Shown here in pieces: positions 97 through 21,440 of a stretch of 32,000 bases of DNA. This stretch comes from an uncultured Verrucomicrobiota bacterium. Its GTDB lineage: Bacteria; Verrucomicrobiota; Verrucomicrobiia; Limisphaerales; UBA8199. The stretch is taken from NCBI GenBank assembly GCA_942493075.1, contig OW818681.1:4156964-4188963 (forward strand). The letters run 5' to 3'. The notes below the pieces were generated by a model that saw only the letters and a program-made list of their open reading frames with translations, was not told the DNA's origin and did no database searches. The translations under genes and the position numbers were made by a program. Every line of letters starts with the position of its first letter. The first letter of the stretch is position 1.

Positions 97-3000
97 TTAG
101 GTCTGCTCGGGTGGTTGCATTCGGCGGGTGTCGGGCTCCTGGGCCTGTTGCCAACCGTCGTCGTAAAAAAACTGGTCCACTTTGCCCGCCGGATTTTGGA
201 TGCAATGGATTTTGAAATCCGCAGTCTCGGCGTGCTCCACGATGTAAAGCCAGTAGAGGTCGCCCAGTTCCTGAGCTTTCAGAAACTCGGTGCGAGTGAG
301 ACCGACCCCGGTGTCGGTCCAAATATCAGAGAGGGACTTGACCTCGATGTAGCGCAAGATGCCCCCCGTGGCGGGGTCGCGACTTTCGATGTCGTATCCC
401 GGATGGGTGTGTGGCATTTCGTGGGGTTCGCACTGCAAGCTCTTCTCGAACTCGAGGACTCGCTGGATACCTGCATTGTTGATGGCCTGCCGACGCTGCT
501 GCAACTCAGGATCGGGGTCCTCGTCTGAGGGGGTGGGATCTTTGACTACGTAACTGCGCAGTTTTCCGCGGCGTGGTTGGCGAGGTTGCTGCCTCCCTGG
601 ACATTCCCCTGCCCCTCCCTCGCCATTACCATGCCGGGGTGAGGTTCCTGTCATCGTGAGAGTTGAACCGCCATGAACACCCGTGCCGTTCCGCCCCCCT
701 CCATTGTCCTTCTGAGGCGAAGGCGAACTGGTAGGTGGATTCAAGGGGGACTGGATTGACACTGAGGGCTGGGCGGGGGGAGGACTGTCAGGTGCACCGG
801 CCGGCTGTGGGTTGGTTACAGAAAAATCCTGGGCGGATTGATCACCGATGGTCCTTATGGCCTGCCCGGCCGGAGCCGACTCCGCAGGCGGAGACTCCAG
901 GTTTGGGAAACCAAGTGCGTCGAGCATGGCGGCGGCTTCAGCCAACGACTCGGCGGCCAAGACGTCTCTTAAGCCGGGAGCCAAGCGACCGGGTTCCTCG
1001 TCGGGGTAGAGAGCGAGAGCCAATTCCCGGGCGATCTGTGCCCACGGAATGCTATCGTCATGTGAAACGAAGAGAAGCAGGTTTCCGTCCGACCGAAATA
1101 GGGCCGGACAATCCTCGGGAGTTGAAGCGAGTTTACTGCCGAATGCATCCAACTCATAGGAAATGCGGAGGGTCACGACAGACTCGAAACGGATCGACTT
1201 GAGCTTCGCCAGTTTATCTGCGGGATTGGAATGCGCGAGTTGAGCATCAAGCACGCGTGCGAGCTGAAGAGAACGTTCCTCAATGCGTGCAACCAGTTCC
1301 AGGTTGGGGGTGGGGTACGAGCATTCGAGGAGTAGAATGTTGACAGTTCCGGCGAGAGTTCGAACCCCGGCGGCGGTCATGGCTTTGGCCGTGCCTAGCA
1401 AGCGCGGGATCGCATTCGATTTGAGAAAACCCTGGAACTTTGATGCCAAACCAGCACGGTCCTCAAAAAACAGCCACGTGGGAGGAGCCAGGACATGAGT
1501 GCTATTGGGGATGCATTTGACTTCAGCCAGGGAAGCAAGGTCGGAGGTGGTGCACTGACCATGTTCGAGAGTTGACTCAAGCATAGCCCAGCAAGCGAGG
1601 CATACGGCACGTGCCTCGTCATCCAGTTGCCGGTTTTTGGAACCGAACTCGTCGGCCAACCCGGCTAGGACGCGAAAAGCATCTTTGTGGGTGGGAGTCT
1701 CTCGGACGCCAATTGCATTAAAAAGGTCATTGAACTTGCGGAGTTCAGGCCCAAGTTGATGGCGGAAGCGGCCAAAGGGATGGGCAGTCCAAAAGACGGA
1801 AGCAGGCCTAACGTAATGGCCATCGGGCAAGCGAAGGCATGGTTGTCCTCTCAGGCGCAGGATGTCGGAATCGTCCGCGTTGTTGTTGAGGAAGTTGTAA
1901 ACCTCCTGGTTTACAGTGTTGCCGGATGAGGCGCAGTGAAGAAGATGATCCACGACTAAAGCCAAGGGAGGCGTGGACTTCAGGCCAAGAGCGCTAAACA
2001 AAGCCGAGGCAGTATTTTGAACAGAGCGATCAACATCCAGGAACTGAGCCTGCGAACTGAAGAGATAATCCTGAAATGTGGCATAAAGCTCAGAGGGGCT
2101 GAACCACTGAGTGGCGTTGCCTCGAGCAGGGAGCCACGCTAAGGACTTGAGAGGGGACAAGGCGTCGGTTCCGGTAGAAGTTGTCTGCAGGCGTGCAGCA
2201 AGGTGGGCAAAGATGGTACGTATGGCAGTGGCTGTGCTGTCACTTGGGGGAGATTGAACTATTTCCTGAACATGGGTGACGATGTTCTCGAAACGAGGGC
2301 TTTCCACGATGCCCAACCAAGAGAATAACTCGTTGGTAACAGTGGCATGCTCCGTCGGCACAAGGGCCTGCGGAACGTGATTCCCAAGGACCTCGACAAT
2401 AATTGCACTTGGGAAGTAGACTTCAGCGGGGCGGCGGAACTGGCCGTCGGCACACTCGATTAGGGGCAACTGAGCCAAGGCAGAACGGATCTCCGGGTCC
2501 TCAGCAATCTGGCTCCGATTTGTAGCGAGAAGCAATGTGGCTGCTCTAAGTTTATCTGCCGCCAAGTCGTCCTGCCTCAAAGCAGGGATCAGGTGCCGTG
2601 ACACGTAGACTGAGAAGGATAAATCCTGAATCCCCAGTTCACGGAGGAAATCATGATGTGAAGATAAGGCCTTAACATCCAAAATGGCGGCGAGTTGAAG
2701 GGGATCAGCAAAATCCCCGGGCAGTGAGAGTTTTGTCAGGGGATTGTAACCGCCGGCGCTTGGAAAAACGGGGAGGTCGGCGAGTCCTGTGATCAGTGTT
2801 TTATTATCGAGAATTTCCGTCCGGCGATCCACAAACCAGGCGATGAGTTTAGGCACTGTGATGCGGCCTTCCTTTACTGCCAAAGCAAAACCTTCTGCTC
2901 CGAGGTTGTGAATTACACCGATGGCCTCCGAAGAGCCAAAACGAGGACAAAGGGATACAAAAAGATCGAAAGTGGTCGTTTCTGTCGAGGCGAAAAGCAG

Positions 3001-4692
3001 TGTTGAGCCCAAATCCAGGAACATCGTTTCGGTGGCCTTATCGGAAGTGCGGTAAACCAAATTGCACGGACACAGACTGCCGTCGCGACTGACAGCAAGG
3101 GAGAGGTTAGCCAGAGAGTTGACGACGGTAACGGCCAGATGATGTTGATGCGGGCCGAAGGAGCGGCGACCCAGCAGGAGATTGATTTCATCCCAGAGAG
3201 CACGGATAGCGCCAGGAGTTTGCAACCATGAGGGCCATTCGCCTTTGGAAAAAGTCCTGGTGAGTCCGGCGAACTGTAACTGCCTAATCAGGACGTCAAT
3301 AGTCAGTTGGCGCACGCCAACTTCTTTGGATATGAGGAGGTTCTGATGGGGACGCAGATCCTCGTGGACACAGTTAATGCCGATTGACTGCAAAACGGGC
3401 AAGGCGTTTTTTTCCTCCGACTGCTGAAGGTAGTAAACCTCAGCAGGACTGCACCACTGGTTCAAATGATTGAAGACGAGAGGCTGGGTGCCAAGCGAGG
3501 GGGCGAGTTTAGTCCAGAATTGCTTGAACATCTTCTCGGCGCGACCGGCATCCGCCTCCTGCGCGACCTGAAAGATGCGTGAGAGGAGAGACCAGACCCT
3601 CTGGTGGCCGAGGGTGTCGCGCAGTTGGTAAAACGAGGAGGCGAAGGCGTCAGCGGCGGCGGCCAGAGCTGCTTTGTTCCACTGGGATTGGTAATCCTGC
3701 TCGAAGATAATGCGTTTGCGATCTTCAGAGGGGTAGAAGTCGGCATTGATGTGAAAAGGCAGACCGGTTCTTTGCTGGGTAGGCAACGTGGCGCAAAGCA
3801 GGCCGGATTGTAGTTCGCCGGCCGGAATGGCGATGAGAATGCCGGAGGAACGCTTAGGCTCGATCCGAGTTGGATGCTGAGTACGAATTTCATCTGCTCG
3901 TGCTGCGAAGCCACCCCGGAGCAGATGCCAGATGACGTCGGGGGAACCGTCCCCCAGGCTCAAAACAAGTGTATTTCCTTGCTTCACCCGTTCCAGATGG
4001 CGAATTAGATTGCCGTTCCTCTTGATGTGGACAGTGTCGATACTCTTCAGGAAGAGCATCGCAGTGGAAAGGGCCGTCTCCAACTCGGCCAAGAGGGCGA
4101 CCGGCGTGTCTCGGGTGACGGGTTCGGCGCGGAGGCCCTGGCGCATGGAAGAATGGGCGTCGAGGGCCCAGGGCAGGTAGAAGCGTGTGCCGGGCAAGTC
4201 CACGGGTAGGCAGCGTGAACAACCGCCACACTGTGCGATGCGTTTGTCGGGCGCTGCAGTCTCGTCGATGATCCAATGACGGCCAGACGAGATAAGTTCC
4301 GGGCGGTCTGTAATCTGGTAAACGGAGATGAAGCCGATGCCGAAGGCACCCGTGGTGTTGGCTTCGTGGCGTTTGTCTGCGCCCGCAACAATCCTGAAGC
4401 GATGGAAATCGCAACGGTGGGAACCGTGTGACGGTTCATTTCTCCAGTGGCATTCTTGTTCCTCGGGCTTAAGGCAGTCACTGAACTGGCCATTGTTTTC
4501 GACGATCAAAGCGTCGCCGCAAATGTTGAAGGTGAAGTGGGTGACGCCCGCGACGTCATCGGCATTCTGGAGCAACTCGTGAGCAAGAGTCGCGAAACCC
4601 TTTAGGTTGCGGAGCTTGGCGCCGAGGTCCTCGAGGTAATCGAGTTCGCGGCCAAAGTGAATGAGAGGTGCTGGAGCAGGTGGGTCAGGCAT
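97..4692 (-). CDS. Sacsin-like GHKL/HSP90-type ATPase-domain protein with C-terminal DUF3883 (NO VEIN C-terminal-like) domain, 1531 aa
   Basis: N-terminus reads FATLAHELLQNADDVAGVTHFTF...LIVENNGQFS...TTGAFGIGFISVYQITDRPEL, a GHKL ATPase N-box/G-box pattern typical of sacsin-like proteins. C-terminus reads HPGYDIESRDPATGGILRYIEVKSL..TRTEFLKAQELGDLYWLYIVE, DUF3883-like. Stop TAA at 97-99, ATG at 4692, 2 bp after the upstream gene's stop. Confidence 0.85.
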   Translation of the reverse strand: MPDPPAPAPLIHFGRELDYLEDLGAKLRNLKGFATLAHELLQNADDVAGVTHFTFNICGDALIVENNGQFSDCLKPEEQECHWRNEPSHGSHRCDFHRFRIVAGADKRHEANTTGAFGIGFISVYQITDRPELISSGRHWIIDETAAPDKRIAQCGGCSRCLPVDLPGTRFYLPWALDAHSSMRQGLRAEPVTRDTPVALLAELETALSTAMLFLKSIDTVHIKRNGNLIRHLERVKQGNTLVLSLGDGSPDVIWHLLRGGFAARADEIRTQHPTRIEPKRSSGILIAIPAGELQSGLLCATLPTQQRTGLPFHINADFYPSEDRKRIIFEQDYQSQWNKAALAAAADAFASSFYQLRDTLGHQRVWSLLSRIFQVAQEADAGRAEKMFKQFWTKLAPSLGTQPLVFNHLNQWCSPAEVYYLQQSEEKNALPVLQSIGINCVHEDLRPHQNLLISKEVGVRQLTIDVLIRQLQFAGLTRTFSKGEWPSWLQTPGAIRALWDEINLLLGRRSFGPHQHHLAVTVVNSLANLSLAVSRDGSLCPCNLVYRTSDKATETMFLDLGSTLLFASTETTTFDLFVSLCPRFGSSEAIGVIHNLGAEGFALAVKEGRITVPKLIAWFVDRRTEILDNKTLITGLADLPVFPSAGGYNPLTKLSLPGDFADPLQLAAILDVKALSSHHDFLRELGIQDLSFSVYVSRHLIPALRQDDLAADKLRAATLLLATNRSQIAEDPEIRSALAQLPLIECADGQFRRPAEVYFPSAIIVEVLGNHVPQALVPTEHATVTNELFSWLGIVESPRFENIVTHVQEIVQSPPSDSTATAIRTIFAHLAARLQTTSTGTDALSPLKSLAWLPARGNATQWFSPSELYATFQDYLFSSQAQFLDVDRSVQNTASALFSALGLKSTPPLALVVDHLLHCASSGNTVNQEVYNFLNNNADDSDILRLRGQPCLRLPDGHYVRPASVFWTAHPFGRFRHQLGPELRKFNDLFNAIGVRETPTHKDAFRVLAGLADEFGSKNRQLDDEARAVCLACWAMLESTLEHGQCTTSDLASLAEVKCIPNSTHVLAPPTWLFFEDRAGLASKFQGFLKSNAIPRLLGTAKAMTAAGVRTLAGTVNILLLECSYPTPNLELVARIEERSLQLARVLDAQLAHSNPADKLAKLKSIRFESVVTLRISYELDAFGSKLASTPEDCPALFRSDGNLLLFVSHDDSIPWAQIARELALALYPDEEPGRLAPGLRDVLAAESLAEAAAMLDALGFPNLESPPAESAPAGQAIRTIGDQSAQDFSVTNPQPAGAPDSPPPAQPSVSIQSPLNPPTSSPSPQKDNGGGRNGTGVHGGSTLTMTGTSPRHGNGEGGAGECPGRQQPRQPRRGKLRSYVVKDPTPSDEDPDPELQQRRQAINNAGIQRVLEFEKSLQCEPHEMPHTHPGYDIESRDPATGGILRYIEVKSLSDIWTDTGVGLTRTEFLKAQELGDLYWLYIVEHAETADFKIHCIQNPAGKVDQFFYDDGWQQAQEPDTRRMQPPEQT

Positions 4693-4694
4693 GG

Positions 4695-5636
4695 CTAGAC
4701 GGGGTCGCGGAGGGGATACTTATTGGGCTGTGAGGGGCAGTTCCAGCGAATGTCACAGATGTCGCAGGTCTTATCGTCTGGCAAACTAGCGCCAGTTGGC
4801 GCGGGCCATGATTGGGTTTGGCAGCAGGTCGCAATGTCTGCCGCCGTGATGTCAAAGGCTGCCAGTGCCTGCTGAACAAGAACGGGGGTGCCGTCAGTTG
4901 CCACACCGGCGCGCATGAAATCCACCACGTGGACCGCCGGCAATGGGCGAGTGGTAATCGGAGGTTGGCCGGGCTTCTGTTTCAGTTCGTTGAGAAAATA
5001 CAAGACTGCCCGGCGGGGGTAGTTACCCGTTTTGACCCGATAGAGTTGAGCGTAGACACTCATCTGCCATTCATAATCCAAGAGGGATGTGGAAGAGAGG
5101 GGTGGTTTGTCCGTGCCCTTGTAATCCCAGATCTCCCTCTCCCCTACGGCATCTGAGGCCAGAACATCGACTACCCCTCGAAGGATATAGGTGCTCCGTT
5201 CTGATTCGAGGCGGTATTCGGTGTCCAGCACACGGGGATACAAGGTCGGGCCTTCGATGTTGTTGAAGGCTTTGAGCACCTCCCTGGCCTGCTCGGCCAC
5301 GCGAGGTGAGGCTGGCCGAACGCCGTGGGCGCGCATGGCGCGATCCACTTCGAAGAAGTAAGCATCAATGTCGGTATCCGTGGGAAACGTTCCAGGGGGA
5401 TGGCCGAACAAACCGCTGAAGTGACGATGACATCGGTCTAGCACCTGATGGATCATCTGGCCGAAGTAGACCTGAACGGCTTGGGCCGGAACGAAGCCAT
5501 CATTTCCGAAGTAGCCGTATTGGCGGCGACACTTGCGGAAAGAGATGATGTCGGATGTGAGACTGAGCCGGGGACGAATCAAGGTGGCAGCGCGGGGGGT
5601 GACGAGTCCCGCAGGAAATAGATTGGCAGCGCTCAT
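4695..5636 (-). CDS. PD-(D/E)XK nuclease-family protein (RecB/AddB/Cas4-like) with probable Fe-S cysteine cluster
   Basis: The 328-aa ORF extends to 5681, but an ATG at 5636 overlaps the helicase stop (ATGA). Motifs: SFRKCRRQYGYF near the N-terminus, GVVDVLASD..EIWDYKG nuclease core, and C-terminal CDICDIRWNCP, giving C...CxxCx5C as in Cas4/AddB. Confidence 0.85.
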   Translation of the reverse strand: MSAANLFPAGLVTPRAATLIRPRLSLTSDIISFRKCRRQYGYFGNDGFVPAQAVQVYFGQMIHQVLDRCHRHFSGLFGHPPGTFPTDTDIDAYFFEVDRAMRAHGVRPASPRVAEQAREVLKAFNNIEGPTLYPRVLDTEYRLESERSTYILRGVVDVLASDAVGEREIWDYKGTDKPPLSSTSLLDYEWQMSVYAQLYRVKTGNYPRRAVLYFLNELKQKPGQPPITTRPLPAVHVVDFMRAGVATDGTPVLVQQALAAFDITAADIATCCQTQSWPAPTGASLPDDKTCDICDIRWNCPSQPNKYPLRDPV

Positions 5637-7894
5637 AAGACGTTTGTTCTGTGTTTCAGCCAACCCGCGCTGGGGCCGCACGGGATGGCGTCCTTGTTGA
5701 AGTGCGTGGCGGTTCCCAGGAAGATCAAAGCGTATTCCGCACGAGAGTAGGCGACGTAATACTGCCGGACCATATCCATTTGGGCGCGTTCGCCTTCGGG
5801 CCTACGGAGAAAACTTCGGGCCGGATTGGCGGGATATTGAGAGAACAGTGTTTCGAGGCGATGACTCTTGCCGACCTCGGCGCCTTCCCCCATGTGGCCC
5901 ACGAAGACATACGGGAATTCCAATCCTTTGGACTGGTGCATGGTCATGATAGGCACCATGCCCGCCGGGCATATCACTTCATCGTTTTCCTCATCGTTCA
6001 TGCCCACATCCATGATGTAGGTGAGGAAGAGATGGTAGAATGAGTTTAACCAACCGCCGACCACTTCGCCCGGGTAGGTGCTGGAGGCTCGCATGGTACC
6101 GCGAGTGACATTGGGCCGTGCCAAACCAGTAGCCGGATCCAAGACAGGGGTGGAGTTGTAAGCCTCCAAAAGCTTGGTCAGGCGTGCGAAACGAACCCGG
6201 CGCACGGGGTCGTTCTGCCACGTGGAGAACGGTTCACAACTCATTAGGTAATAGGTCAACTCTTGCAGGTTGCAGTCGAAGTATTCACCGGGTTTCGCGA
6301 GGATGGCGGCGCGGCATTGGGCGACATAAGCGGTGAGGGCGGGGTTGGCGGCCGCAAGGGCGTCGTAGGTGGTGCGAAAATCCGCCTCAGCGGCTGGAAT
6401 AGAATTCTTGTTAGCCGGATCCTGGGCGTAACGGCGTTGGGGGTCCACGACTGCCAGAATGGCACCCAGCAAACCCTGAACCTCCTCCTGCTCCATGAAG
6501 GTTTTGTTGCGCGGGTTATAGACGGAGAGCCCCCGTGCTTGCAAAGCGGCAGCAAAGGGGCCGGCATTGCGAGGAGACTCTTTGGTGCTCTTGAGCAGGA
6601 GACAGCACTCGTTGGGATCGTTTACCTTGCCAGTGCTGATCAAGTCAGCGACGGTTTGAGCAAACAGATCGGCGACGTCGCCGAGTTTAGCGCCAACGAG
6701 TCTGCCGATCGCCGGATAGGTTTGAGGAATGAGCTTGCGAGCAACGACCGGAGGTTTGGGCGACCGCGCTCCGGGGGTCAGCATTAATGGGAATGCGGTA
6801 ATGTAGTCGTTGATGAAATCAACGATATCGGTATGGGAGCGGAAGTTATCAACCAGACTGTAGCGCGCAACCGTGGAAGGATTCAGGCCGAGGAACGCCT
6901 GACAGGCTCGATCGAACGTGACCATGCACTCGACCGAGCCGCCCCGGAAGCGATACATGGCCTGGTCATCGTCACCCACAACAACGAGATTATGAGGCGC
7001 GCGACGGGCGAGTTGGAAGTAAATTTCCTCCTGCATGGGGTTGGTATCCTGGTATTCGTCCACGAGGACCCACTGGATGCCCGGGTTGGCAGGGGATCCG
7101 TCGCCGGTGAGAAAGGACTGGCCCAAGGGGGTGCTGAGGAAGCTCAGGAAACGGCCCTGGAGTTGTGAGAAATCGCAACGATAATTGTTAAGCAGGTGCT
7201 TAACATATTCGTCGTAGAGATCGGCCAACCGAGCCAATTGTCCGCCGACCGCCCGCAAGCCCGTGACTGAAACGCGATCTTCAACCATGCGGTTGAGCAG
7301 CACAATCAGGGCACTGGTGGTATTCCAACGGCTGGGGGGGTAAGCCCTCGTAGGTTGCCATTGCAACGGAGTAAACATCCAAGGGAAGGCGCCCCAGAAA
7401 GTGATTTCAGCGGGAGCATTGGGTGCCTTGACCAGACTCATGTGTTCGCGGACAAAGAGCGCCTGCTCGAACTCATCCATGAGGCGGACGTTCTGATAAT
7501 TGGGCGCGCGGAATTCCTGCAGGAGATCGTTGGCCAATCCATGCAAAGTGCCGACGCGCAATTTGGAAACGTCGATCACCACCAAAGAGGGATCGGCAGC
7601 CACCAGCCGAGCGCGGTAGTTAAGAATGCGGTCTTCGAGATTCTTAGCAGCCTTTTCTGTGAAGGTAGTGACAAAAACAGATTCCGGCGGGACGCGTTGG
7701 GCTTGCAGAGGATCGCCACTGACGTAGAGGAGGCGAAGGACCATGACGGTAAGGACTTCGGTCTTGCCTGAACCCGGGCCGGCGAGGACCCAGGCCGGGC
7801 CTTGCGGATGGCGGACAATGGCCTCCTGCTGGGGCGTGAGTTGTTTGGTTGCACCAGGCGGGTAGAGAATGGCGAGGAGTTCGGTGATGGTCAT
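5633..7894 (-). CDS. UvrD/Rep-like superfamily 1 DNA helicase, 753 aa
   Basis: LTPQQEAIVRHPQGPAWVLAGPGSGKTEVLT (Walker A), WVLVDEYQDTNPMQ (Walker B), VVGDDDQAMYRFRGG, TMHQSKGLEFPYVFV. Confidence 0.95.
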   Translation of the reverse strand: MTITELLAILYPPGATKQLTPQQEAIVRHPQGPAWVLAGPGSGKTEVLTVMVLRLLYVSGDPLQAQRVPPESVFVTTFTEKAAKNLEDRILNYRARLVAADPSLVVIDVSKLRVGTLHGLANDLLQEFRAPNYQNVRLMDEFEQALFVREHMSLVKAPNAPAEITFWGAFPWMFTPLQWQPTRAYPPSRWNTTSALIVLLNRMVEDRVSVTGLRAVGGQLARLADLYDEYVKHLLNNYRCDFSQLQGRFLSFLSTPLGQSFLTGDGSPANPGIQWVLVDEYQDTNPMQEEIYFQLARRAPHNLVVVGDDDQAMYRFRGGSVECMVTFDRACQAFLGLNPSTVARYSLVDNFRSHTDIVDFINDYITAFPLMLTPGARSPKPPVVARKLIPQTYPAIGRLVGAKLGDVADLFAQTVADLISTGKVNDPNECCLLLKSTKESPRNAGPFAAALQARGLSVYNPRNKTFMEQEEVQGLLGAILAVVDPQRRYAQDPANKNSIPAAEADFRTTYDALAAANPALTAYVAQCRAAILAKPGEYFDCNLQELTYYLMSCEPFSTWQNDPVRRVRFARLTKLLEAYNSTPVLDPATGLARPNVTRGTMRASSTYPGEVVGGWLNSFYHLFLTYIMDVGMNDEENDEVICPAGMVPIMTMHQSKGLEFPYVFVGHMGEGAEVGKSHRLETLFSQYPANPARSFLRRPEGERAQMDMVRQYYVAYSRAEYALIFLGTATHFNKDAIPCGPSAGWLKHRTNVL

Positions 7895-10074: not shown

Positions 10075-10254
10075 TCACAACCGATCTTCAGGTGAATCTG
10101 CGTATTGCACCGGCAACGCCACGCCCTTATGACAGGCAGACAGAAGTCCAGATTCTGCGCCAAACCTATGCAATTCTCGTTTGAATGGCCAGATACCGTG
10201 AAAAGAGATGTTTGACAGTGAGTTGGTCTTGAGTGGGTATGTGGTTGGGTTCAT
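10075..10254 (-). pseudogene. 59-aa ORF resembling the C-terminal tail of the adjacent HerA-like ATPase; possible herA remnant or micro-protein
   Basis: Manual translation gives MNPTTYPLKTNSLSNISFHGIWPFKRELHRFGAESGLLSACHKGVALPVQYADSPEDRL. Compare the HerA tail ...SNDIFPFKRELQVMGIGQAILSASYKGVPLPVQIPEF. ATG at 10254 overlaps the preceding ORF's TGA (ATGA). Confidence 0.5.
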
Positions 10255-15991: not shown

Positions 15992-16663
15992 CTAGGGCTG
16001 TAGAAGCTTATTTTGGTCCAAAAGTTTCTGCAAAATGCGAGTTGCTAACTCGGTAGCAGGATCAAACGAACACGGCAGGGTTCCCGCAGCGGCGCAACCC
16101 GCAACGTCCTCGGGGCGGTAGCGAACCCCACCATTCTTTTGCAGCCGCTGGACGTGCTCTTCAGAGACCCCATCTTGCAGGAGTGCTTCGCATATGGATT
16201 TAACCCATTCCGCGTCACCCTCTCTTTCTGCGGGCCAATCTTGGAGAACTGCCAGATCAATTCCGGCATATCTGAACACCGCCAAAACGAACGTTGCACA
16301 TGTAAGACCGACTCCGGTGTCACCCAAGAGCCACCGTCCGGTTTCATCATCGAAGCAGTCGGATGGCGCGCTGAAGCCGTAAGGCATACCAGCGCGATTG
16401 GCTTTAAGAACCTGACGACAGCGGACGGCTACTTGCAGAGCCCTTACTGTGTGGATTGGGGGATCTACCCAAAGGTAATGTGGCTTGGGATTCCGCTCAC
16501 GGAGGTCATGATGCCATGCCAAGTCAGCAAGTTTGATCTCATCCTTTAAATCTGTTTGGAACAGGATTCCTAAATGCTGCTGGCCATTTCCCATTAAGGC
16601 AATGGCTACTGCAGCATTCCGAATCTCATTAAATCCACGCTCCTCCTGTGAGTAGACCCGCAT
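15992..16663 (-). CDS. Uncharacterised 223-aa protein, possible cysteine-hydrolase (NlpC/P60 or YiiX-like) fold
   Basis: PYGFSAPSDCFDDETGRWLLGDTGVGLTCATFVLAVFRYAGIDL resembles a Cys active-site helix ([D/N/T]C[S/T/A]xFV), followed by VRYRPEDVAG. Weak motif evidence only. Confidence 0.5.
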   Translation of the reverse strand: MRVYSQEERGFNEIRNAAVAIALMGNGQQHLGILFQTDLKDEIKLADLAWHHDLRERNPKPHYLWVDPPIHTVRALQVAVRCRQVLKANRAGMPYGFSAPSDCFDDETGRWLLGDTGVGLTCATFVLAVFRYAGIDLAVLQDWPAEREGDAEWVKSICEALLQDGVSEEHVQRLQKNGGVRYRPEDVAGCAAAGTLPCSFDPATELATRILQKLLDQNKLLQP

Positions 16664-16687
16664 TTTGCTTGATACTCCTGTGCTGGC

Positions 16688-17362
16688 CTAGGGCTCAAGC
16701 CCTGTGAGCAAATCATCATCCCACTCCCTGCGCTCTTTGATGAGAGACTCAGCTTGCCGGAACAAGTGCGCGCGCGATGGCAGCTTCGATTTTGCGGGTA
16801 GCGTCGCGGTCAACAAACCCACAAGCAAGTTGGTGGAGAGTGTAGCATAATTCGTGTTTGCAACTATAGAATCCACGTCGGCAAATCGACCCCTACGAAA
16901 GAATTGATCTATGCGTTCATAAAGCAGGTCCAAAGCCGCATGCACGCGACCCTGTTTGTCTAGCCTGATCATCGGCTCAAAGAACTGGCTCCCTGAACGG
17001 TCCGGCGTTTCCGTGCAAACCATCGAGCGCTTAGGTAAATACCTGCGCTCGTACCCCAACTCCAAGAGGCGTGAGGCGTGGAAAATGTTGTGAGACAATT
17101 GTTTTGCGCAGAAGCCGAAGTCTTCATCCTTGGTGAAGACCTCAAAGACATCTTCATCTGGGAGTGCGCAAGTGCAAAATTGGGAGAAAACAGATAGGTA
17201 ATTCTCCTTAGCGGCCTGCTGTTGACGTCCCGGATTTAAGAAAACGACACGGCCAGTGGGTTGTGTTTCTCCGGAACGAGTTCTTCTGGTGGAATCCCGC
17301 CAGAGATCTTTGACAGACAAAGGAAAAAATTCTCTTGTGTAAGATATCGGAACCTCATTCAT
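16688..17362 (-). CDS. Conserved-looking uncharacterised protein, 224 aa from ATG at 17362
   Basis: MNEVPISYTREFFPLSVKDLWRDSTRRTRS... with GGAGG (cctcc at 17373-17377) about 11 nt upstream. Tightly packed with the flanking genes. Confidence 0.65.
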   Translation of the reverse strand: MNEVPISYTREFFPLSVKDLWRDSTRRTRSGETQPTGRVVFLNPGRQQQAAKENYLSVFSQFCTCALPDEDVFEVFTKDEDFGFCAKQLSHNIFHASRLLELGYERRYLPKRSMVCTETPDRSGSQFFEPMIRLDKQGRVHAALDLLYERIDQFFRRGRFADVDSIVANTNYATLSTNLLVGLLTATLPAKSKLPSRAHLFRQAESLIKERREWDDDLLTGLEP

Positions 17363-18053
17363 TGTTACCTTGCCTCCCTGGAATAATTGTTGGGATTTTT
17401 GCCTTAGCTTGGAGTTCACTCTGAGCAGTCCTCGATTTAAGCATTGCGCGCTCGCACTGCTTCATGAGGAGCTGGATGTCATCCTCGTCAATCGAGAGGC
17501 TGAGGACGTGGTCTCCTTGGGGGTCGTCGTAACGGACAATGAGCGTGTGCGAAATGACCGTGCCACGCAGCTGTGTGGCGTCGTCACTGAATACAGGACG
17601 GATATCAGTGAGAATGCGGGCGCGCTGGAGGAGTTCAGCATGCTCATACGAAAGATCGAGGGCTTTGGCTGAGAGATAAATAATCTCTGAGTTGAAGAGG
17701 TTCTTAACTTCTCGCTCTACACCTTTCCAAGCCTCAAATTGCTCGTGTGTCCAACCAGACTCAGACGGGTCCAACGCAAGTCGGAGAGCGCCGAAAATCT
17801 GATTAGGGTTGATATTCAGATTCCTTAGCACCCCGTGCAGTGCTAGCAATTGGCGAAGGATGGGCTCACTTGCAGACCCCGAGGCGGGCCCTAGAGCAGC
17901 GGCGATCGCCTCCTGCAGTTTACCGGGCGAAACTGGCTCTTGAGGCAAGCTGTTGAGGTGTTGAGTCAGCCTTTGGACGGTTTCTGAGCCAAGTTCAGAA
18001 ATCAATGCCAAATCGGCCTTATGCTGCGCTTGCAGCCTAATCTGGGGTTCCAT
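17355..18053 (-). CDS. Uncharacterised protein, 232 aa; likely first gene of the dpdA-herA-helicase operon
   Basis: Intact ORF MEPQIRLQAQHKADLALISELGSETVQRL...TVISHTLIVRYDDPQGDHVLSLSIDEDDIQLLMKQCERAMLKSRT. It overlaps the next start. A 244-bp intergenic gap lies upstream. Confidence 0.65.
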   Translation of the reverse strand: MEPQIRLQAQHKADLALISELGSETVQRLTQHLNSLPQEPVSPGKLQEAIAAALGPASGSASEPILRQLLALHGVLRNLNINPNQIFGALRLALDPSESGWTHEQFEAWKGVEREVKNLFNSEIIYLSAKALDLSYEHAELLQRARILTDIRPVFSDDATQLRGTVISHTLIVRYDDPQGDHVLSLSIDEDDIQLLMKQCERAMLKSRTAQSELQAKAKIPTIIPGRQGNNE

Positions 18054-18111: not shown

Positions 18112-18297
18112 GAGCATGCATGATTTTTCAGAGAACTGCTCTAAATGACCAACAGACAGCTTCATCTCTCGTCAGTTAAGTATTTGGCATAAAGAAAGTC
18201 AAGGCCCTGAAGTTGACCGCCCCAGAGCGAAATTCAAGCTCATTTCCGCACTTTCATACGTAATCGTGGCTCATGAACCGGCTTTGTCAATCCGAGT

Positions 18298-19137
18298 CTA
18301 ATACCTATCCTCGTTCAAGCTCCTGTCGAGTTGCGCTGAGGCAACTATGGCGAAGGCTGAGTGATTGTGGATGCTTTCCTGGTTAACGGCGCGGACTTCG
18401 AACCAGGTGATGCGTTTGTCTTTCTTTAAGAGGTGGGCGGCGTTGCGGACGACGTCCTCGACGAAGACTGGGTTATCGAAAGCTTGCATGGTGACGTGGC
18501 GTTCGTCAGGACGTTTTAGAAGGGGATAGACGGGAGCGGATGCGGAACGTTCGGCGATATCAATGAGTTCCTCGATCCAGATGAGTTCCCATAGACCGTT
18601 CGTGCGCTTGGGACGGACCGTGACGGTGACCTGTCCCCGCTGATTGTGGGCACCGTAGTCACTGATTTCTTTGGAACAGGGGCAAAGGGTGGTGACTGGC
18701 ACTTTGACACGAAGAAGGAAGTCGTCCGTCTTTCCGTTGGACTGGCCGATAAAGGTGCAGCGGTAGTCCATAGGTGCCTGGGACCCAGACACGGGTGCGG
18801 TGCGGGTTAGGAAGTATGGAAATTCGACCTCGATGTGGGCGGCTTCCGAATCGAGATGCTGCTTAAGATCATGGAGGATGGCAGGCAGGGTTCGCATGGT
18901 TACCTCGCCCTGGTGCCGGCTGAGAATTTCGAGGAACCGGCTCATGTGGGTGCCTTTGAAGTGGTGCGGGAGGCTTACCGACATGGAGATAGTGGCGACC
19001 GTTTGTTGCTTTTGATTCTGACGGTCGAGGACGGCAATAGGAAAAGAGAGGTCGCAGATGCCAACGTTATCTATTGGCACGCCGCGGCGGTCTTTGGTTT
19101 TCTGGATGTCGGGTAACTGGCGAGCGGGAGATTTCAT
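18298..19137 (-). CDS. folE2: GTP cyclohydrolase IB (FolE2/MptA family)
   Basis: LPDIQKTKDRRGVPIDNVGICDLSFPIAV, TMRTLPAILHDL, VKVPVTTLCPCSKEISDYGAHNQRGQVTVTVR, MQAFDNPVFVEDVVRN, EVRAVNQESIHNHSAFA. Confidence 0.95.
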   Translation of the reverse strand: MKSPARQLPDIQKTKDRRGVPIDNVGICDLSFPIAVLDRQNQKQQTVATISMSVSLPHHFKGTHMSRFLEILSRHQGEVTMRTLPAILHDLKQHLDSEAAHIEVEFPYFLTRTAPVSGSQAPMDYRCTFIGQSNGKTDDFLLRVKVPVTTLCPCSKEISDYGAHNQRGQVTVTVRPKRTNGLWELIWIEELIDIAERSASAPVYPLLKRPDERHVTMQAFDNPVFVEDVVRNAAHLLKKDKRITWFEVRAVNQESIHNHSAFAIVASAQLDRSLNEDRY

Positions 19138-19140
19138 GAA

Positions 19141-19596
19141 TCAATCCCAGTATTCGGCCCAGGAGCAACTGGTTTCCCAAAGGCGAACTTTCACTACGCG
19201 AACCGTGGAACGTAAAGGATAGGGTGCGGCGGGGTCGGCGGCGTAAGTCGCGAGCTTGGCTTTGACGACGTCATGGATTGTCTTGGCCATGACTTCGGTA
19301 GTGGGATCCATGCATTCAAAAGCCACCACGCGATCACCGAACGCAGCCTTCAGGGGTGTGAAGTTGGGGTCCTGAGTGTTGACGCAGATCGCGTGATCGA
19401 GTGTTTTAAGATAATCGTTAAGGCTGGCTTTGAGAGCCTTGAAATCACAGACCATCTCGTTGGAATCGAGCGTGTCCGCTTCAATTACGACTTCAACTTT
19501 GCGGCTGTGGCCGTGGGGGAATTTGCACAGGTCGGGGTGCTTTGAAAGCATGTGTCCGTTCTCGATTTCGAAGGTTTTACAGATGCGGTATGGCAT
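19141..19596 (-). CDS. queD: 6-carboxy-5,6,7,8-tetrahydropterin synthase QueD-like
   Basis: ICKTFEIENGHMLSKHPDLCKFPHGHSRKVEVVIEAD (Cx3HGH), MVCDFKALKASLNDYLKTLDHAICVN, VRLWETSCSWAEY. Confidence 0.93.
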   Translation of the reverse strand: MPYRICKTFEIENGHMLSKHPDLCKFPHGHSRKVEVVIEADTLDSNEMVCDFKALKASLNDYLKTLDHAICVNTQDPNFTPLKAAFGDRVVAFECMDPTTEVMAKTIHDVVKAKLATYAADPAAPYPLRSTVRVVKVRLWETSCSWAEYWD

Positions 19597-20289
19597 TTAG
19601 GTTCCTCGTGTGTGGCCAAAGAGTTCGACGTGAAGACGGTTGCAATAGCGGTAGCCATGGCGTTTGCAGACGTCCAAAAGGGTTTCGGCTCGACCGCGAA
19701 GCACGGCTGTTGATGTGCCCTCGGGCATGAGCAGGATTTTTGCTGGCGGGACTTTTTGACGGAGGTCGTGCAGGAGGGATTGGATTTCCTGAACATCCGA
19801 GGCGGAGTTGACTACGAACTTGAGCTGATATGTGTAGTGATCGAGCCACTCGGAGATTACGGCTGGGTGCCGCCTTAGGTTTTCATGCTTCTCGCGCCAA
19901 GCCGTCGGCAGCCGGTTATCCGGAGCTGAGTTGCTGAGCTTTGGACTGAGTGACGCGAGATCGCAGATGATGCCATTCGGCGGGACGGTTGCCGCCGTCT
20001 CGATGGTTATATGTTTCCCTGCCTGGCGAAGAGCTGCTGCGAGTTCGTGAATTCCCTTGGCGATCATCGGCTCGCCGCCGGTTAGAACGCAATGCTGAGC
20101 GGGGAAAGAATCCACCTTGCGGAGAATTTCGTCCGGAGCCATGTCTTTGCCTTCCGGGTCCCACGAGGCGTACATGGTGTCGCACCAGTTGCAGCGGAGG
20201 TTGCAACCGGAGGTCCGAATAAAAACGGACGGGACGCCCGTGAGTTCGCCTTCGCCCTGGATGGAATAGAATATCTCCGATATAAGCAT
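19597..20289 (-). CDS. queE: 7-carboxy-7-deazaguanine synthase (radical SAM) QueE
   Basis: MLISEIFYSIQGEGELTGVPSVFIRTSGCNLRCNWCDTMYA gives radical SAM Cx3Cx2C, with VLTGGEPMIAKGI. The track ORF extends to 20562, but the ATG at 20289 fits QueE. Confidence 0.95.
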   Translation of the reverse strand: MLISEIFYSIQGEGELTGVPSVFIRTSGCNLRCNWCDTMYASWDPEGKDMAPDEILRKVDSFPAQHCVLTGGEPMIAKGIHELAAALRQAGKHITIETAATVPPNGIICDLASLSPKLSNSAPDNRLPTAWREKHENLRRHPAVISEWLDHYTYQLKFVVNSASDVQEIQSLLHDLRQKVPPAKILLMPEGTSTAVLRGRAETLLDVCKRHGYRYCNRLHVELFGHTRGT

Positions 20290-20290
20290 T

Positions 20291-20995
20291 TCAGGCCCCG
20301 ATGGTGGGAGCAGGCTTAGGCGGCAGTGGAGATGTTTCTGCGTAGGTGGTTGGGTCAGAGAGACCGGCGAGCATGAACGCCTCCCGACGCTCGACGCAAG
20401 TGCCGCAGGTGCCGCAGTGTATTGCTCCGCCCTTGTAGCAGGACCAGGTTTTGGAAAAATCGACGCCGAGCTCGTAGCCGCGGCGGGCGATTTCCGCTTT
20501 GGTGAAGCGAATGAAGGGGCGGAGAATCTGGATTTGGGCGTAGGTTCCAAGGCGGATGGCATCGGCCATGGCTTTCATGAAATCCTCGCGGCAGTCTGGA
20601 TAGATGGCGTGGTCTCCGGCGTGGGCAGCTATGACGAGGCCCTGGGCCTCAATCGATTCGGCAAACCCGCCAGCAATTGAGAGCATGATGCCGTTGCGAA
20701 AGGGAACAACGGTCTGCTTCATCGTTTGCTCCTCATAGTGACCGTCGGGGACAGTGCCACCTGACTTGAGGAGGTCAGATTTGAAAAGCTGGGAAACGAA
20801 GTCGAGTTGGATGGTACGATGGGAGATTCCGAGTTGGTCGCAGTGGTAGGCAGCGAAAGGGATCTCCCTGTGGTTGTGCTTGGAACCGTAGTCGAAGCTG
20901 AGGGCGCCGACAACTTGATAGGCCTGATTGGCTTCGTAGAGGGCGGCAACCGAGTCCATCCCACCGCTAACAAGAACTACGACTTGGGTTTTCAT
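20291..20995 (-). CDS. queC: 7-cyano-7-deazaguanine synthase QueC
   Basis: MKTQVVVLVSGGMDSVAALYEA (PP-loop SGGMDS), GALSFDYGSKHNHRE, VPFRNGIMLSIAGGFAESI, C-terminal CYKGGAIHCGTCGTCVERREAF zinc site. ATG at 20995. Confidence 0.96.
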   Translation of the reverse strand: MKTQVVVLVSGGMDSVAALYEANQAYQVVGALSFDYGSKHNHREIPFAAYHCDQLGISHRTIQLDFVSQLFKSDLLKSGGTVPDGHYEEQTMKQTVVPFRNGIMLSIAGGFAESIEAQGLVIAAHAGDHAIYPDCREDFMKAMADAIRLGTYAQIQILRPFIRFTKAEIARRGYELGVDFSKTWSCYKGGAIHCGTCGTCVERREAFMLAGLSDPTTYAETSPLPPKPAPTIGA

Positions 20996-20999
20996 CGCA

Positions 21000-21440
21000 T
21001 CATGAATGGAGAGTAGTGACCGGGTCTGGGTGCTCTGCAGTGACGGTAAGGGATAAGCCTCCTCGCGGAACAAATTTGCCTTCGATCTTTATGCGCCGTG
21101 GGCGGCAAGCCTTAACCAGGTCGTCGAGGACGCTGTTTATAACCTGCTCGTTGAACGAGTGCACGTTGCGGTACGAGGACAGGTAGAGCTTGAGGGACTT
21201 GGTCTCGATGCAAAGCTTGTCGGGGATGTAATCTACGAGAATCTCTGCGAAATCGGGCTGGCCGGTGACCGGGCAGAGGGAGGTAAAATCGGGACAGTCG
21301 AGACGGATGGAATAGTCGCGGTTCGGTTTGGGGTTTGGGAACGTTTCGATCGTGGCCGACTGCGGAGACTTGGGGAACGCCGCCTCGGAGTTTCCAAGAA
21401 GCGTCAGACTGGCGTATTTCTTATTTCGGGACCGTTTCAT
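21000..21440 (-). CDS. queF: NADPH-dependent 7-cyano-7-deazaguanine reductase QueF (type I, short)
   Basis: LDCPDFTSLCPVTGQPDFAEILVDYIPDKLCIETKSLKLYLSSYRN (catalytic Cys plus the ExKSLKLY QueF motif), AEHPD. Likely ATG at 21440 (146 aa). Confidence 0.92.
   Translation of the reverse strand: MKRSRNKKYASLTLLGNSEAAFPKSPQSATIETFPNPKPNRDYSIRLDCPDFTSLCPVTGQPDFAEILVDYIPDKLCIETKSLKLYLSSYRNVHSFNEQVINSVLDDLVKACRPRRIKIEGKFVPRGGLSLTVTAEHPDPVTTLHS

Follow-up and report, generated by a model that had tools for sequence, protein, structure and literature searches.

The window analysed here is a continuous stretch of 32,000 nucleotides, and the cluster at positions 97–21440 on its minus strand is a real and conserved gene set (Table 1). 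It contains queF-queC-queE-queD-folE2, a DpdA orthologue, a NurA-fold protein, a HerA ATPase, a 621-aa protein (p621), a UvrD helicase, a Cas4-like nuclease and a giant sacsin/NOV_C protein. By ORF and Pfam checks, all the genes listed in an initial annotation of this DNA are found on that strand with matching coordinates. The close junctions it described are also present: uvrD and the nuclease gene share an ATGA overlap at 5633–5636, and gaps of 3–10 bp separate dpdCA, nurA and herA from one another as well as the que genes. Four wider spacers of 244 bp, ~215 bp, 514 bp and 87 bp lie within the locus, which is therefore organised into about five transcription units rather than the single operon that had been proposed.

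A divergently transcribed regulator lies beyond queF (Pfam WCX, E=3e-17, and WYL, E=8.3e-13; PADLOC WYL, E=9.2e-33). It was not found beside the related loci when 80 of them were compared, and it is tied to the system by its position only. The flanks carry RadC/JAB and DUF6573 genes, which are typical of mobile elements.

Table 1. Features of the locus by position in the window
Feature	Position	Strand	Basis
Sacsin-like GHKL ATPase with NOV_C/DUF3883 nuclease-like C-terminus, 1531 aa (matches TmtA)	97..4692	-	PADLOC TmtA, Pfam
Cas4/AddB-like PD-(D/E)XK nuclease (predicted)	4695..5636	-	Pfam PDDEXK_1 E=2.2e-17
UvrD/PcrA-family SF1 helicase	5633..7894	-	Pfam UvrD-helicase E=1.1e-44
XRE/Cro-type HTH regulator, 68 aa	7891..8097	-	Pfam HTH_3 E=9e-11
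621-aa protein (p621), c12/c33/p621 superfamily	8185..10050	-	AF2, Foldseek, HMMs
Relic of a second herA 3' end	10105..10194	-	herA-p621 spacer
HerA/FtsK-type ATPase-translocase (predicted)	10565..12355	-	Pfam DUF87 + HerA_C
NurA-fold nuclease (predicted), small dedicated subfamily	12359..13549	-	AF2 + Foldseek
DpdC-DpdA fusion (DpdCA)	13560..15776	-	NCBIfam, PADLOC, Pfam, PDB profile match
Three-gene cassette (232, 243/224, 223 aa), variable cargo	15992..18053	-	tblastn, PDB, phrog
folE2, GTP cyclohydrolase IB	18298..19137	-	Pfam GCHY-1 E=2.2e-94
queD, CPH4 synthase	19141..19596	-	Pfam PTPS E=1.4e-27
queE, CDG synthase (radical SAM)	19597..20286	-	Pfam Radical_SAM E=8.3e-14
queC, preQ0 synthase	20291..20995	-	Pfam QueC E=1.7e-62
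queF, unimodular preQ0 reductase (preQ0 -> preQ1)	21000..21440	-	Pfam QueF E=1.4e-29
HTH-WYL-WCX regulator, BrxR/CapW-like architecture	21594..22649	+	Divergent transcription; Pfam, PADLOC

The DpdC-DpdA fusion and the precursor genes

DpdCA consists of an N-terminal DUF6884/DpdC-like domain (~aa 5-178) and a C-terminal DNA-guanine transglycosylase, DpdA (~aa 260-738). The protein scores 419 bits against NCBIfam DpdA NF041059 (cut-off 200), matches PADLOC DpdA at E=2.3e-114, and aligns at E=6e-116 with residues 19-430 of the 436 of PDB 7ui4, the solved 'DNA-guanine transglycosylase' of Salmonella enterica serovar Montevideo. Its catalytic Asp residues and the ligands of the Zn site (D351, D561, C697/C699/C702/H724 in DpdCA) are invariant. 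A tRNA-acting TGT was rejected on the end-to-end alignment with 7ui4 and the NF041059 score, the arcTGT model reaching just 26 bits. The DpdA-like transglycosylase of the initial annotation is thus of the DNA type, and homology shows it to be a bona fide DNA-guanine transglycosylase.

DpdC, which had not been recognised before, is represented by a DpdC-like N-terminal domain of the same polypeptide (Pfam DUF6884, E=3e-9; PADLOC DpdC, E=2.8e-10; YaaA, E=4e-5); DUF6884 is the DpdC family (bioRxiv 10.1101/2025.02.24.639861). Its nitrile-hydratase activity is assumed, because its matches to PADLOC's DpdC models extend over only ~60% of their length, with modest E-values. The fusion is not peculiar to this locus. 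It forms a large family found in 269 species genomes, and in cyanobacteria and Bacillota it also belongs to loci of canonical Dpd-like type, with DpdB and DpdE/F/G. Outside the present locus it pairs with canonical Dpd restriction genes (DpdG, a DpdH-like protein, and SNF2 and RecQ-like helicases), as would be expected if a single modification module served different restriction modules. DpdB is truly absent, as had been noted: Pfam DndB and PADLOC DpdB/DndB match no window protein, and none of the 317 window ORFs is matched, at E<=1, by an HMM made from 14 DndB-like neighbours taken from related loci. In cyanobacterial loci, the same approach does pick up DndB (E=1.8e-79).

The full precursor pathway that had been proposed is borne out by Pfam matches for FolE2, QueD, QueE, QueC and QueF. 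The starts of these genes were refined, that of queE being MLISEIF. By homology, folE2, queD, queE and queC are shown to lead from GTP to preQ0, which QueF could turn into preQ1; QueF contains the motifs CPVTGQPD, with its Cys, and ETKSLKLY. Among 80 related loci, queC adjoins DpdCA in 29 and queE is present in 28; queF is rare, occurring in only 6 of them and in the P0002 contig.

The three genes between folE2 and dpdCA, which had been put forward for a co-occurrence check, are unrelated cargo, with no tblastn match in the 80 related loci. The 232-aa product of the first gene matches the COMMD-like PDB entry 9q6a (E=3.4e-6), and the 223-aa protein matches phrog_11836 (E=7.5e-7). In relatives the same slot is occupied by SACS/NOV_C or Adenine_glyco genes.

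HerA, NurA and the nuclease genes

The NurA-fold protein has no Pfam match, and its assignment comes from an AF2 model (pLDDT 89.7). Foldseek aligns the model with Sulfolobus solfataricus NurA 2ygk (E=1.7e-10, probability 1.0), D. radiodurans NurA 7f6d_G (E=2e-5) and TM1739/1zup (E=4e-4), which confirms the NurA fold that had been called from the sequence. D61 (DGSG), D203 (LxDTSL) and GYPYP are the conserved motifs of its subfamily, which is tiny (117 representatives among 1.84 billion proteins) and is seen only beside DpdCA in all contexts examined. The gap between nurA and herA is 3 bp. HerA, another call that holds, exceeds the Pfam cut-offs of 23.2 bits for DUF87 (with 46.7) and 22 bits for HerA_C (with 23.8), and both its Walker motifs are intact, A being GRTGTGKS (residue 191) and B being IIIEE (residue 486). 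It is also matched at 1e-18 to 1e-16 by the PADLOC HerA and mad8 models. Orthology to the HerA of double-strand-break repair was rejected (NF040819, 51.8 bits, cut-off 970; NF040937, 51.5 bits, cut-off 800), as were the NCBIfam models of anti-phage HerA (30-43 bits; cut-offs 800-850). The herA relic in the spacer downstream, with 18 of 30 residues identical to HerA 563-592 (E=6e-10), is read as a recombination scar left by a module swap.

The predicted fold of p621 contains two restriction-endonuclease-like (PD-(D/E)XK-fold) domains around a helical middle (AF2 pLDDT 89.1). Its Foldseek matches are weak and at the level of domains, and all are PD-(D/E)XK nucleases, namely Upx, Can2, AF1548, Bax1, NucS, Cas4 and Mrr. 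The protein is matched by the c12 (9.2e-12) and c33 (1.5e-11) HMMs, and hhalign gives 84.7% for the C-terminal domain. The c12/p621 family accompanies DpdA even where DpdC and DpdA are unfused (L082).

The next genes form a cassette headed by a small XRE regulator gene that the initial annotation had overlooked and that overlaps the start of uvrD by 4 bp. Orthologues 60-67% identical to the regulator lie directly upstream of uvrD in loci L084-L086, and another is found upstream of uvrD in the P0002 contig. The UvrD-like and Cas4-like assignments stand: beyond the Pfam matches, the helicase carries the motifs AGPGSGKT and VLVDEYQD, and the nuclease carries IWDYK and a Cas4/AddB-type cysteine pattern (C51, C306xxC309x5C315) that is predicted to be a 4Fe-4S set. 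In locus L087 the helicase and the nuclease are fused into one protein.

The sacsin gene begins 2 bp past the nuclease gene. Its product matches PADLOC TmtA PDLC03969 (E=0, 1497.6 bits) from residue 15 to 1524, over profile positions 11-1509 of 1563, with Pfam matches to SACS (E=4.2e-15), NOV_C (E=1.9e-14) and DUF3684. TmtA is the protein of Tiamat, a single-gene system (bioRxiv 10.1101/2024.10.26.620412). SACS/NOV_C genes occupy several positions in or beside HerA-type Dpd loci, adjoining 7 of 26 such loci vs 0 of 61 other DpdCA loci (p=1e-4). The sacsin protein that the initial annotation had placed in the system is therefore present and enriched at HerA-type loci, but as an optional component and not as part of the core.

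Conservation and modular exchange

The order queC/D/E–DpdCA–NurA–HerA–~600-aa protein–UvrD–PD-(D/E)XK is found in 19 of the 80 species genomes, and its carriers belong to the Proteobacteria, Planctomycetota, Verrucomicrobiota, Acidobacteriota, Bacteroidota, Myxococcota, Chloroflexota and Bacillota. Distances between genes are mostly of -8 to +13 bp across loci. It is also found in six metagenome contigs, among them all four (4/4) that were reached via NurA-like matches and not via DpdA. This bears out the co-occurrence of DpdA with herA/nurA, which the initial annotation had put forward for checking, and extends it to uvrD, the Cas4-like nuclease and the 621-aa family.

In Mantel tests, DpdCA co-varies with NurA (r=0.72, p=0.001) and HerA (r=0.56), and NurA with HerA (r=0.78). 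UvrD and the nuclease co-vary with each other (r=0.82) but not with DpdCA, and the 621-aa family likewise shows no co-variation with DpdCA. The cluster is modular, with two modules evolving independently, rather than the unitary system that had been envisaged: the second module, made up of UvrD and the nuclease, is exchanged independently of DpdCA–NurA–HerA. UvrD/PD-(D/E)XK also accompanies DpdB-type cyanobacterial loci, and DpdCA-NurA-HerA occurs without it in loci L001, L032, L068 and L084. DndB/DpdB-bearing and HerA/NurA-bearing loci show zero overlap among the 80; a replacement of DpdB by HerA is nevertheless not forced, because many DpdCA loci have neither.

Relation to known systems and proposed mechanism

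The closest known system is Dpd of S. Montevideo (dpdA-K; Thiaville 2016, Yuan 2018, Gedara 2023), in which DpdA needs the DpdB ATPase, DpdC acts later, on preQ0-DNA, and dpdD-K restrict (PMC10164549). The two share a DpdA orthologue, a domain resembling DpdC, preQ0 genes within the island, and a modification module accompanied by helicase and nuclease genes, and the identical fusion occurs in cyanobacterial and Bacillota loci with DpdB, DpdG and DpdH-like proteins. In contrast to S. Montevideo, DpdA and DpdC form one polypeptide here, queF is present, and NurA, HerA, p621/c12, UvrD and the Cas4-like nuclease are found instead of DpdB and DpdD-K. No DpdD-K model is among the PADLOC matches listed for the scanned window proteins (for UvrD, the best 25 of 46), and HMMs for the DpdG, DpdH-like, SNF2, RecQ-like and PLD neighbours match none of the window ORFs. 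BREX-related capture (BRC; HerA/FtsK + TGT (+GNAT) + PglZ + DUF6079 + STAND + DUF4007; 2026) likewise brings a HerA/FtsK translocase together with an enzyme of the TGT family in the absence of DpdB, and its authors also propose another NTPase in DpdB's stead (PMC12839542). BRC lacks DpdC, NurA and the UvrD/Cas4-like module, and its TGT is optional, whereas DpdCA is the anchor here; PglZ, BrxC-like DUF6079, STAND, DUF4007 and GNAT have no Pfam or PADLOC match in the window.

The HerA-NurA end-resection complex of archaea and Deinococcus (2ygk, 7f6d) has the same adjacent nurA-herA genes, NurA fold, and DUF87/HerA_C with Walker motifs. The pair described here is not orthologous to it (~51 bits vs 800-970), its NurA is invisible to Pfam, and it lies inside a DNA-modification island with no Mre11/Rad50. 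HerA ATPases beside nuclease-type effectors in a defence context are also known from Sir2-HerA, DUF4297-HerA and DndFGH-type HerA 'capture' (PMC10853773, which makes no mention of TGT, NurA or UvrD); here the partner has a NurA fold and is coupled to a 7-deazaguanine writer. AddAB and RecB-type helicase-nucleases and Cas4 share with the cassette a UvrD-family SF1 helicase, a PD-(D/E)XK nuclease and the C...CxxCx5C iron-sulfur signature, with the two genes overlapping here and fused in L087. The cassette differs from them in scoring far under the cut-offs of the NCBIfam AddA, RecB and PcrA equivalogs and in having a private XRE regulator and a defence-island setting. Tiamat (Millman 2022) shares the full-length TmtA match, the sacsin-like ATPase and the NOV_C/DUF3883 PD-(D/E)XK-like end, and differs in that the gene here directly follows the UvrD-nuclease genes and recurs at HerA-type loci. 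No account of the arrangement was found in the literature searched, which left out the early Dpd papers (PNAS 2016, Mol Microbiol 2018, NAR 2013).

With moderate confidence, we regard the locus as part of a mobile island and as a member of the Dpd family of 7-deazaguanine modification-restriction systems, in which it represents a distinct 'HerA-NurA' subtype. It is apparently a so far undescribed variant of the known Dpd system, which most likely marks the DNA of the cell with a 7-deazaguanine base and degrades DNA that lacks it, and in which the HerA–NurA motor-nuclease pair most likely occupies the place of the usual helper DpdB. DpdA would exchange specific guanines of the host chromosome for preQ0, and the attached DpdC domain would next hydrate the nitrile, giving dADG as the mark of self DNA. 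The translationally coupled and co-evolving NurA-HerA would stand in for the missing ParB-like ATPase DpdB; it is most likely a nuclease-equipped ring translocase, powered by ATP and engaging mark-less DNA, and it may also provide the ATP-dependent DNA handling required by DpdA. The pair may serve DNA restriction, or the writing of the mark by DpdA, or both. The fast-diverging, double-nuclease-fold p621 is a probable discriminator or initial cutter, and the HTH-UvrD-Cas4-like cassette, separately regulated and exchangeable, would unwind and degrade the target; a Tiamat-type sacsin/NOV_C ATPase often appears to come after it. The function of every cluster member is inferred from homology and synteny, and self-marking by deazaguanine with degradation of unmarked DNA by HerA/NurA is what we purely infer. 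Points against this explanation include QueF, for which a preQ0/ADG scheme has no use, and TmtA, which is validated as a system on its own. In addition, UvrD/nuclease and the 621-aa family could be independent neighbours, because they do not co-vary with DpdCA and are set apart by spacers of 87-514 bp.

It is possible, though rather unlikely, that HerA-NurA acts instead on the writing side, the HerA ring loading or opening DNA in an ATP-dependent manner like DpdB, NurA possibly nicking, and p621, UvrD-Cas4-like and/or TmtA restricting. The requirement of DpdA for an ATPase partner in vitro (PMC10164549) would be explained in this way. So would the absence of DpdB here and its mutual exclusion with HerA/NurA across the 80 loci, although other DpdCA loci do without either. 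DpdCA is coupled to, and co-varies most tightly with, NurA-HerA, the other nuclease modules being freely swapped or, in the four loci named above, missing; yet a modification enzyme and the restriction complex that has to read its mark would be expected to co-vary just as much. Phosphorothioate-writing modules include nicking ATPases, a precedent for a writing role, but the nuclease motifs of NurA are strictly conserved, which a pure loader would not need, and the defence HerA-nuclease pairs so far known are effectors. Service to a mobile element, with deazaguanine in element or cell DNA evading the restriction of other bacteria after transfer and the helicase/nuclease genes replicating or recombining the element, is very improbable. 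The neighbours do resemble mobile-element genes, and phage systems in which DpdA comes with que genes of its own, queF included, are described as shielding DNA from restriction (PMC6884629, PMC10516641, PMC5699537). This DpdA is closest to the bacterial restriction-modification type (7ui4), however, its partners belong to defence-type families (HerA, NurA, Cas4-like, TmtA, WYL regulator), and genes for phage structure or conjugation were not seen in the window.

We also consider it doubtful that the locus is an ordinary defence island, in which self-sufficient systems (a restriction-less Dpd module, HerA-NurA, HTH-UvrD-Cas4-like, Tiamat and a COMMD-like cassette) were co-selected as neighbours. 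Cassette shuffling is evident from the relic herA end, and the flanking RadC/JAB and DUF6573 genes are mobile-element-typical, but one gene order recurs across eight or more phyla and in all four unbiased look-ups, and the very small NurA subfamily keeps to DpdCA. UvrD/PD-(D/E)XK has its own HTH regulator, evolves apart from DpdCA and joins DpdB-type loci as well; the c12/p621 family, on the other hand, tracks DpdA even without the fusion, and a costly private precursor pathway would bring no obvious benefit without cognate restriction. The sacsin protein is a full-length match to a validated stand-alone system, but the SACS/NOV_C enrichment is specific to HerA-type loci. Because these genes recur at such loci and the gene here lies 2 bp from the nuclease gene, an accessory rather than a stand-alone role of TmtA is suggested, and this placement together with the enrichment argues, short of proof, for a role linked to the Dpd subtype.

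Gene content of the cluster and its core proteins

The gene cluster proposed in the initial annotation was confirmed by ORF listing and profile searches, and its genes (97–21440) are all co-directional on the minus strand. The tight junctions that had been described are present: uvrD and the nuclease gene share an ATGA overlap, a 2-bp gap separates the nuclease and sacsin genes, and other gaps measure 3–10 bp. Four spacers of 87–514 bp split the array into about five units. One gene had been overlooked, encoding a 68-aa XRE-type HTH protein; its counterparts in the window's clade (related loci L084–L086 and the P0002 contig) show 60–67% identity and lie directly upstream of uvrD. The window's closest relatives are Verrucomicrobiota. 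Searches across the window found no preQ1 riboswitch, tRNA integration site, or any tRNA or Rfam element, and a PHROGs search returned nothing useful for the core proteins.

Genes of the cluster and the adjoining regulator, with supporting evidence
Feature	Coordinates	Strand	Evidence or remark
queF	21000–21440	-	Pfam E=1.4e-29
queC	20291–20995	-	Pfam E=1.7e-62
queE	19597–20286	-	radical SAM
queD	19141–19596	-	Pfam PTPS
folE2	18298–19137	-	Pfam E=2.2e-94
three unannotated genes	15992–18053	-	without core-system homology
738-aa TGT-family protein, DpdC-DpdA fusion	13560–15776	-	DpdA and DpdC profiles
396-aa protein, NurA fold	12359–13549	-	predicted-structure match
HerA	10565–12355	-	DUF87 and HerA_C over cut-off; Walker A/B intact
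621-aa protein (p621)	8185–10050	-	c12/c33 HMM matches
XRE/Cro-type HTH, 68 aa	7891–8097	-	4-bp overlap with uvrD start
UvrD-family helicase	5633–7894	-	Pfam E=1.1e-44
PD-(D/E)XK nuclease	4695–5636	-	Cas4/AddB-type cysteine signature
1531-aa sacsin/NOV_C protein	97–4692	-	PADLOC TmtA match
HTH-WYL-WCX regulator, divergent	21594–22649	+	outside the minus-strand array

The C-terminal ~480 residues of the DpdC-DpdA fusion (DpdCA) reach 419 bits with the NCBIfam DpdA equivalog, whose cut-off is 200; with the arcTGT and general TGT models the scores are 17–26 bits, which rules out a tRNA-type TGT. With 7ui4, the solved 'DNA-guanine transglycosylase' of S. Montevideo, the family profile gives an end-to-end alignment (E=6e-116), but it matches the archaeal tRNA enzyme at E=2e-5 only. 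The two catalytic aspartates are invariant, as is the CxCxxC...H zinc site. In the fusion, the first ~180 residues give matches to Pfam DUF6884 (E=3e-9), which is the family of DpdC (bioRxiv 10.1101/2025.02.24.639861), to PADLOC DpdC (E=2.8e-10) and, at a weaker level, to YaaA. The initial annotation was therefore wrong in regarding DpdC as absent, since a DpdC-like domain forms the N-terminus of the DpdA protein. It was right about DpdB: Pfam, PADLOC and a custom DndB HMM uphold the absence of this protein, and exclude a hidden DpdB among the 223-, 243-, 232-, 621- and 396-aa proteins. The fusion is a large family, with 1767 matches among 8,000 candidates scored, and is carried by 269 of 185,579 species genomes.

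The 396-aa protein has no Pfam match. Its AF2 model (pLDDT 89.7, built from a 43-sequence alignment) finds its best PDB matches in S. solfataricus NurA (E=1.7e-10), the NurA of the D. radiodurans HerA-NurA complex and TM1739, and the NurA motifs YxLxDxSLS and GYPxP are aligned by its sequence profile. Only 117 relatives emerged when 1.84 billion representatives were searched exhaustively by profile; the protein belongs to a small, dedicated NurA subfamily. The window's HerA and NurA differ from the housekeeping HerA-NurA complex, as equivalog scores lie far below cut-off.

For p621, an AF2 model of good quality (pLDDT 89.1) gave no significant full-length structural match. Its weak domain-level matches are all to PD-(D/E)XK nucleases (Upx, Can2, AF1548, Bax1, NucS, MGME1, Cas4 and Mrr). 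HMMs of two clusters of proteins occupying the same slot in related loci, c12 (~600 aa) and c33 (~716 aa), match p621 with E=9e-12 and E=1.5e-11, respectively, so that all of them make up a single, fast-diverging superfamily. Since its N- and C-terminal domains recur in these proteins, p621 is not an unrelated singleton. The 1531-aa protein matches PADLOC TmtA over its full length (1497 bits); TmtA is Tiamat, a single-gene system.

Conserved order and modular composition of related loci

The comparison set comprised the 80 best DpdCA loci with 10-kb flanks, onto which the window proteins were mapped by tblastn and in which all ORFs were clustered. The order [que genes]-DpdCA-NurA-HerA-c12-UvrD-PD-(D/E)XK is common to 19 of the 80, from Beta- and Gammaproteobacteria, Planctomycetota, Verrucomicrobiota, Acidobacteriota, Bacteroidota, Myxococcota, Chloroflexota and Bacillota, and two close metagenomic relatives have the same gene order. 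Singulisphaera sp. GP187, Noviherbaspirillum massiliense JC206 and Spirosoma spitsbergense are examples of native carriers. To avoid selection bias, four further loci were reached from NurA-like hits rather than from DpdA, and all four showed this arrangement. The predicted co-occurrence of the DpdA-like gene with herA and nurA in other genomes is thus borne out by both sets. queF is uncommon, being present at 6 of the 80 loci.

The helicase-nuclease end of the array is likewise recognizable elsewhere. At L086 a 1565-aa SACS/NOV_C gene follows the nuclease gene, exactly the window's layout. At L087 (14788–17643) a single 951-aa protein combines UvrD with the PD-(D/E)XK nuclease, and a sacsin-like ATPase comes next; this fusion favours joint action of the two window genes as one helicase-nuclease. 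SACS/NOV_C giants adjoin at least 7 of 26 loci with NurA and HerA (HerA-type), in three different positions, and none of 61 other DpdCA loci (Fisher p=1e-4), the count being a lower bound because most 10-kb flanks stop at the nuclease gene.

DpdCA is found in other settings as well. Cyanobacterial loci combine it with DndB/DpdB (Pfam E=1.8e-79), DpdG, and SNF2 and RecQ-like helicases, or alternatively with a 1650-aa helicase and a PLD-like protein; Bacillota loci combine it with a second TGT paralogue and a DpdH-like ATPase. On the DpdCA tree, HerA/NurA loci form one main clade that includes the window, plus a Bacillota subgroup, and among the 80 loci HerA/NurA and DpdB never coincide. Within HerA-type loci, Mantel tests correlated DpdCA with NurA (r=0.72), NurA with HerA (r=0.78) and DpdCA with HerA (r=0.56; p<=0.004), and UvrD with the nuclease (r=0.82, p=0.002). 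Correlations across these modules ranged from -0.14 to 0.30, and the c12 family correlated with no other component. The window UvrD is 41–43% identical to that of the HerA-type loci L008 and L014 and of cyanobacterial DpdB-type loci, but only 26–28% identical to that of most other HerA-type loci. The locus can be described as a core, made up of the writer and HerA/NurA, that carries exchangeable helicase-nuclease cassettes.

Several smaller arrangements were also seen. L082 (5794–11824) carries unfused DpdC (248 aa) and DpdA (479 aa) with a DEAD helicase (640 aa) and a p621-like protein (607 aa), and looks like a minimal system; L083 (10001–13419) has a p621-family gene with a DEAD helicase alone. 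These pairings hint that p621 and a helicase form the basic restriction unit. A second TGT/DpdA paralogue of ~300 aa without a DpdC domain occurs at L008, L013, L032, L068 and L085 (L085 20369–21191). This short paralogue, represented by L080 12968–13900 (Pfam TGT E=6.8e-15, PADLOC DpdA E=1.6e-22), adjoins many DpdCA loci, HerA-type ones included, often with a ~790-aa DEAD-type helicase (cluster c17); it may be a second writer, an eraser or a reader.

Relation to Dpd and possible roles of HerA-NurA

Dpd has been described as the largest restriction-modification system and the least understood. The window shares DpdA with it and has a partial DpdC domain; DpdB is missing, and DpdD-K were not among the profile matches listed for the window proteins. 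Of the genomes with dpdA, 8% lack DpdB (PMC5699537). BRC, the 2026 HerA+TGT system, contains PglZ, a BrxC-like protein, a STAND NTPase and DUF4007; the window locus has none of the four and is therefore not BRC. No description of this arrangement emerged from the literature searched for DpdA or deazaguanine in combination with HerA, NurA, UvrD or Tiamat, which did not extend to the founding papers on Dpd or to Iyer et al. 2013. The HerA-NurA Dpd subtype is real, of low frequency but widespread, and experimentally attractive; it is not categorically new.

Synthesis of preQ0, DpdA and the DpdC-like domain are assigned to the window by homology; the mechanism beyond these we infer. In S. Montevideo, DpdA depends on the ATPase DpdB, DpdC works on preQ0-DNA at a later step, and dpdD-K restrict unmodified DNA (PMC10164549). 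We consider it somewhat probable that the window encodes Dpd-type restriction-modification in which HerA-NurA would be an effector on the restriction side, together with the p621-family protein and the HTH-UvrD-Cas4-like cassette, with or without TmtA. HerA-NurA might instead stand on the writing side as a substitute for DpdB, which we judge somewhat unlikely. Co-variation with DpdCA and exclusivity with DpdB fit this placement and the effector role alike, so these data do not separate the two; the strict conservation of the NurA nuclease motifs speaks against a writer and tips the balance toward an effector, which may have a dual role. That the genes are pure neighbours in a defence island seems quite improbable, given that the synteny extends across phyla and that the NurA and p621 families are dedicated ones. 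The earlier reading of the locus as a deazaguanine-based modification and defence system holds in part: it is upheld on the absence of DpdB, and fails on DpdC and on the 223–232-aa genes as components.

A bolder proposal, unlikely in our estimation, is that the HerA hexamer with NurA would not be a restriction effector but a ring translocase replacing DpdB and threading DNA past DpdC-DpdA, so that processive, motor-coupled base exchange would write the 7-deazaguanine marks. In the queF-bearing clade the mark might be dPreQ1, which to our knowledge has so far been seen in phage DNA only. Reading of the mark would fall to the recurrent Tiamat-type sacsin/NOV_C ATPase and to the p621 family with its double nuclease fold; if true, this would give a first mechanistic handle on Tiamat.

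The HerA-NurA subtype represents a simpler, naturally re-wired Dpd, with a one-polypeptide writer, no DpdB, and HerA-NurA and UvrD-Cas4-like pairs from biochemically tractable families. Comparison between subtypes could reveal the part of the ATPase in DNA base exchange and how the deazaguanine mark is read. It also gives a defined context to three orphans: the dedicated NurA subfamily, the p621/c12 double-nuclease-fold family and the Tiamat-type sacsin/NOV_C proteins. Current defence-finder rules based on dpdA-K can be expected to miss or mislabel such loci.

Variable cargo and flanking regions

The 223–232-aa genes (15992–18053) have no counterpart in the 80 related loci and were ruled out as system components; relatives carry a sacsin gene or a Tag-like glycosylase in the matching slot. 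One relative, L081 (72% identical), has a Tag-like 3-methyladenine DNA glycosylase (Pfam Adenine_glyco, 9177–10022) between queD and dpdCA, and two c12-family genes on either side of nurA-herA flank that pair. The 232-aa window protein (17355–18053, minus strand) matches the bacterial COMMD-like MBK5214510 (PDB 9q6a) over the COMM domain (E=3.4e-6). Prokaryotic COMMD-like proteins form ring oligomers (PMC13392464); here the gene heads a three-gene cassette inside a defence island, a context absent from that report.

The 514-bp herA-p621 spacer contains what remains of a second herA 3' end (10105–10194, minus strand), with 18 of 30 residues identical to HerA 563–592 (E=6e-10); it looks like a recombination scar of downstream cassette exchange. 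The cluster flanks (23661–24657, minus strand, and 31089–31976, plus strand) carry a RadC-like JAB gene (E=6.6e-34), DUF6573 (E=3.6e-16) and a weak PD-(D/E)XK ORF, typical cargo of integrative mobile elements. On the plus strand, GC skew stays above zero in almost all 1-kb bins of the window (1–32000) and climbs to 0.2–0.33 past 21 kb, the main genes lying on the minus strand.
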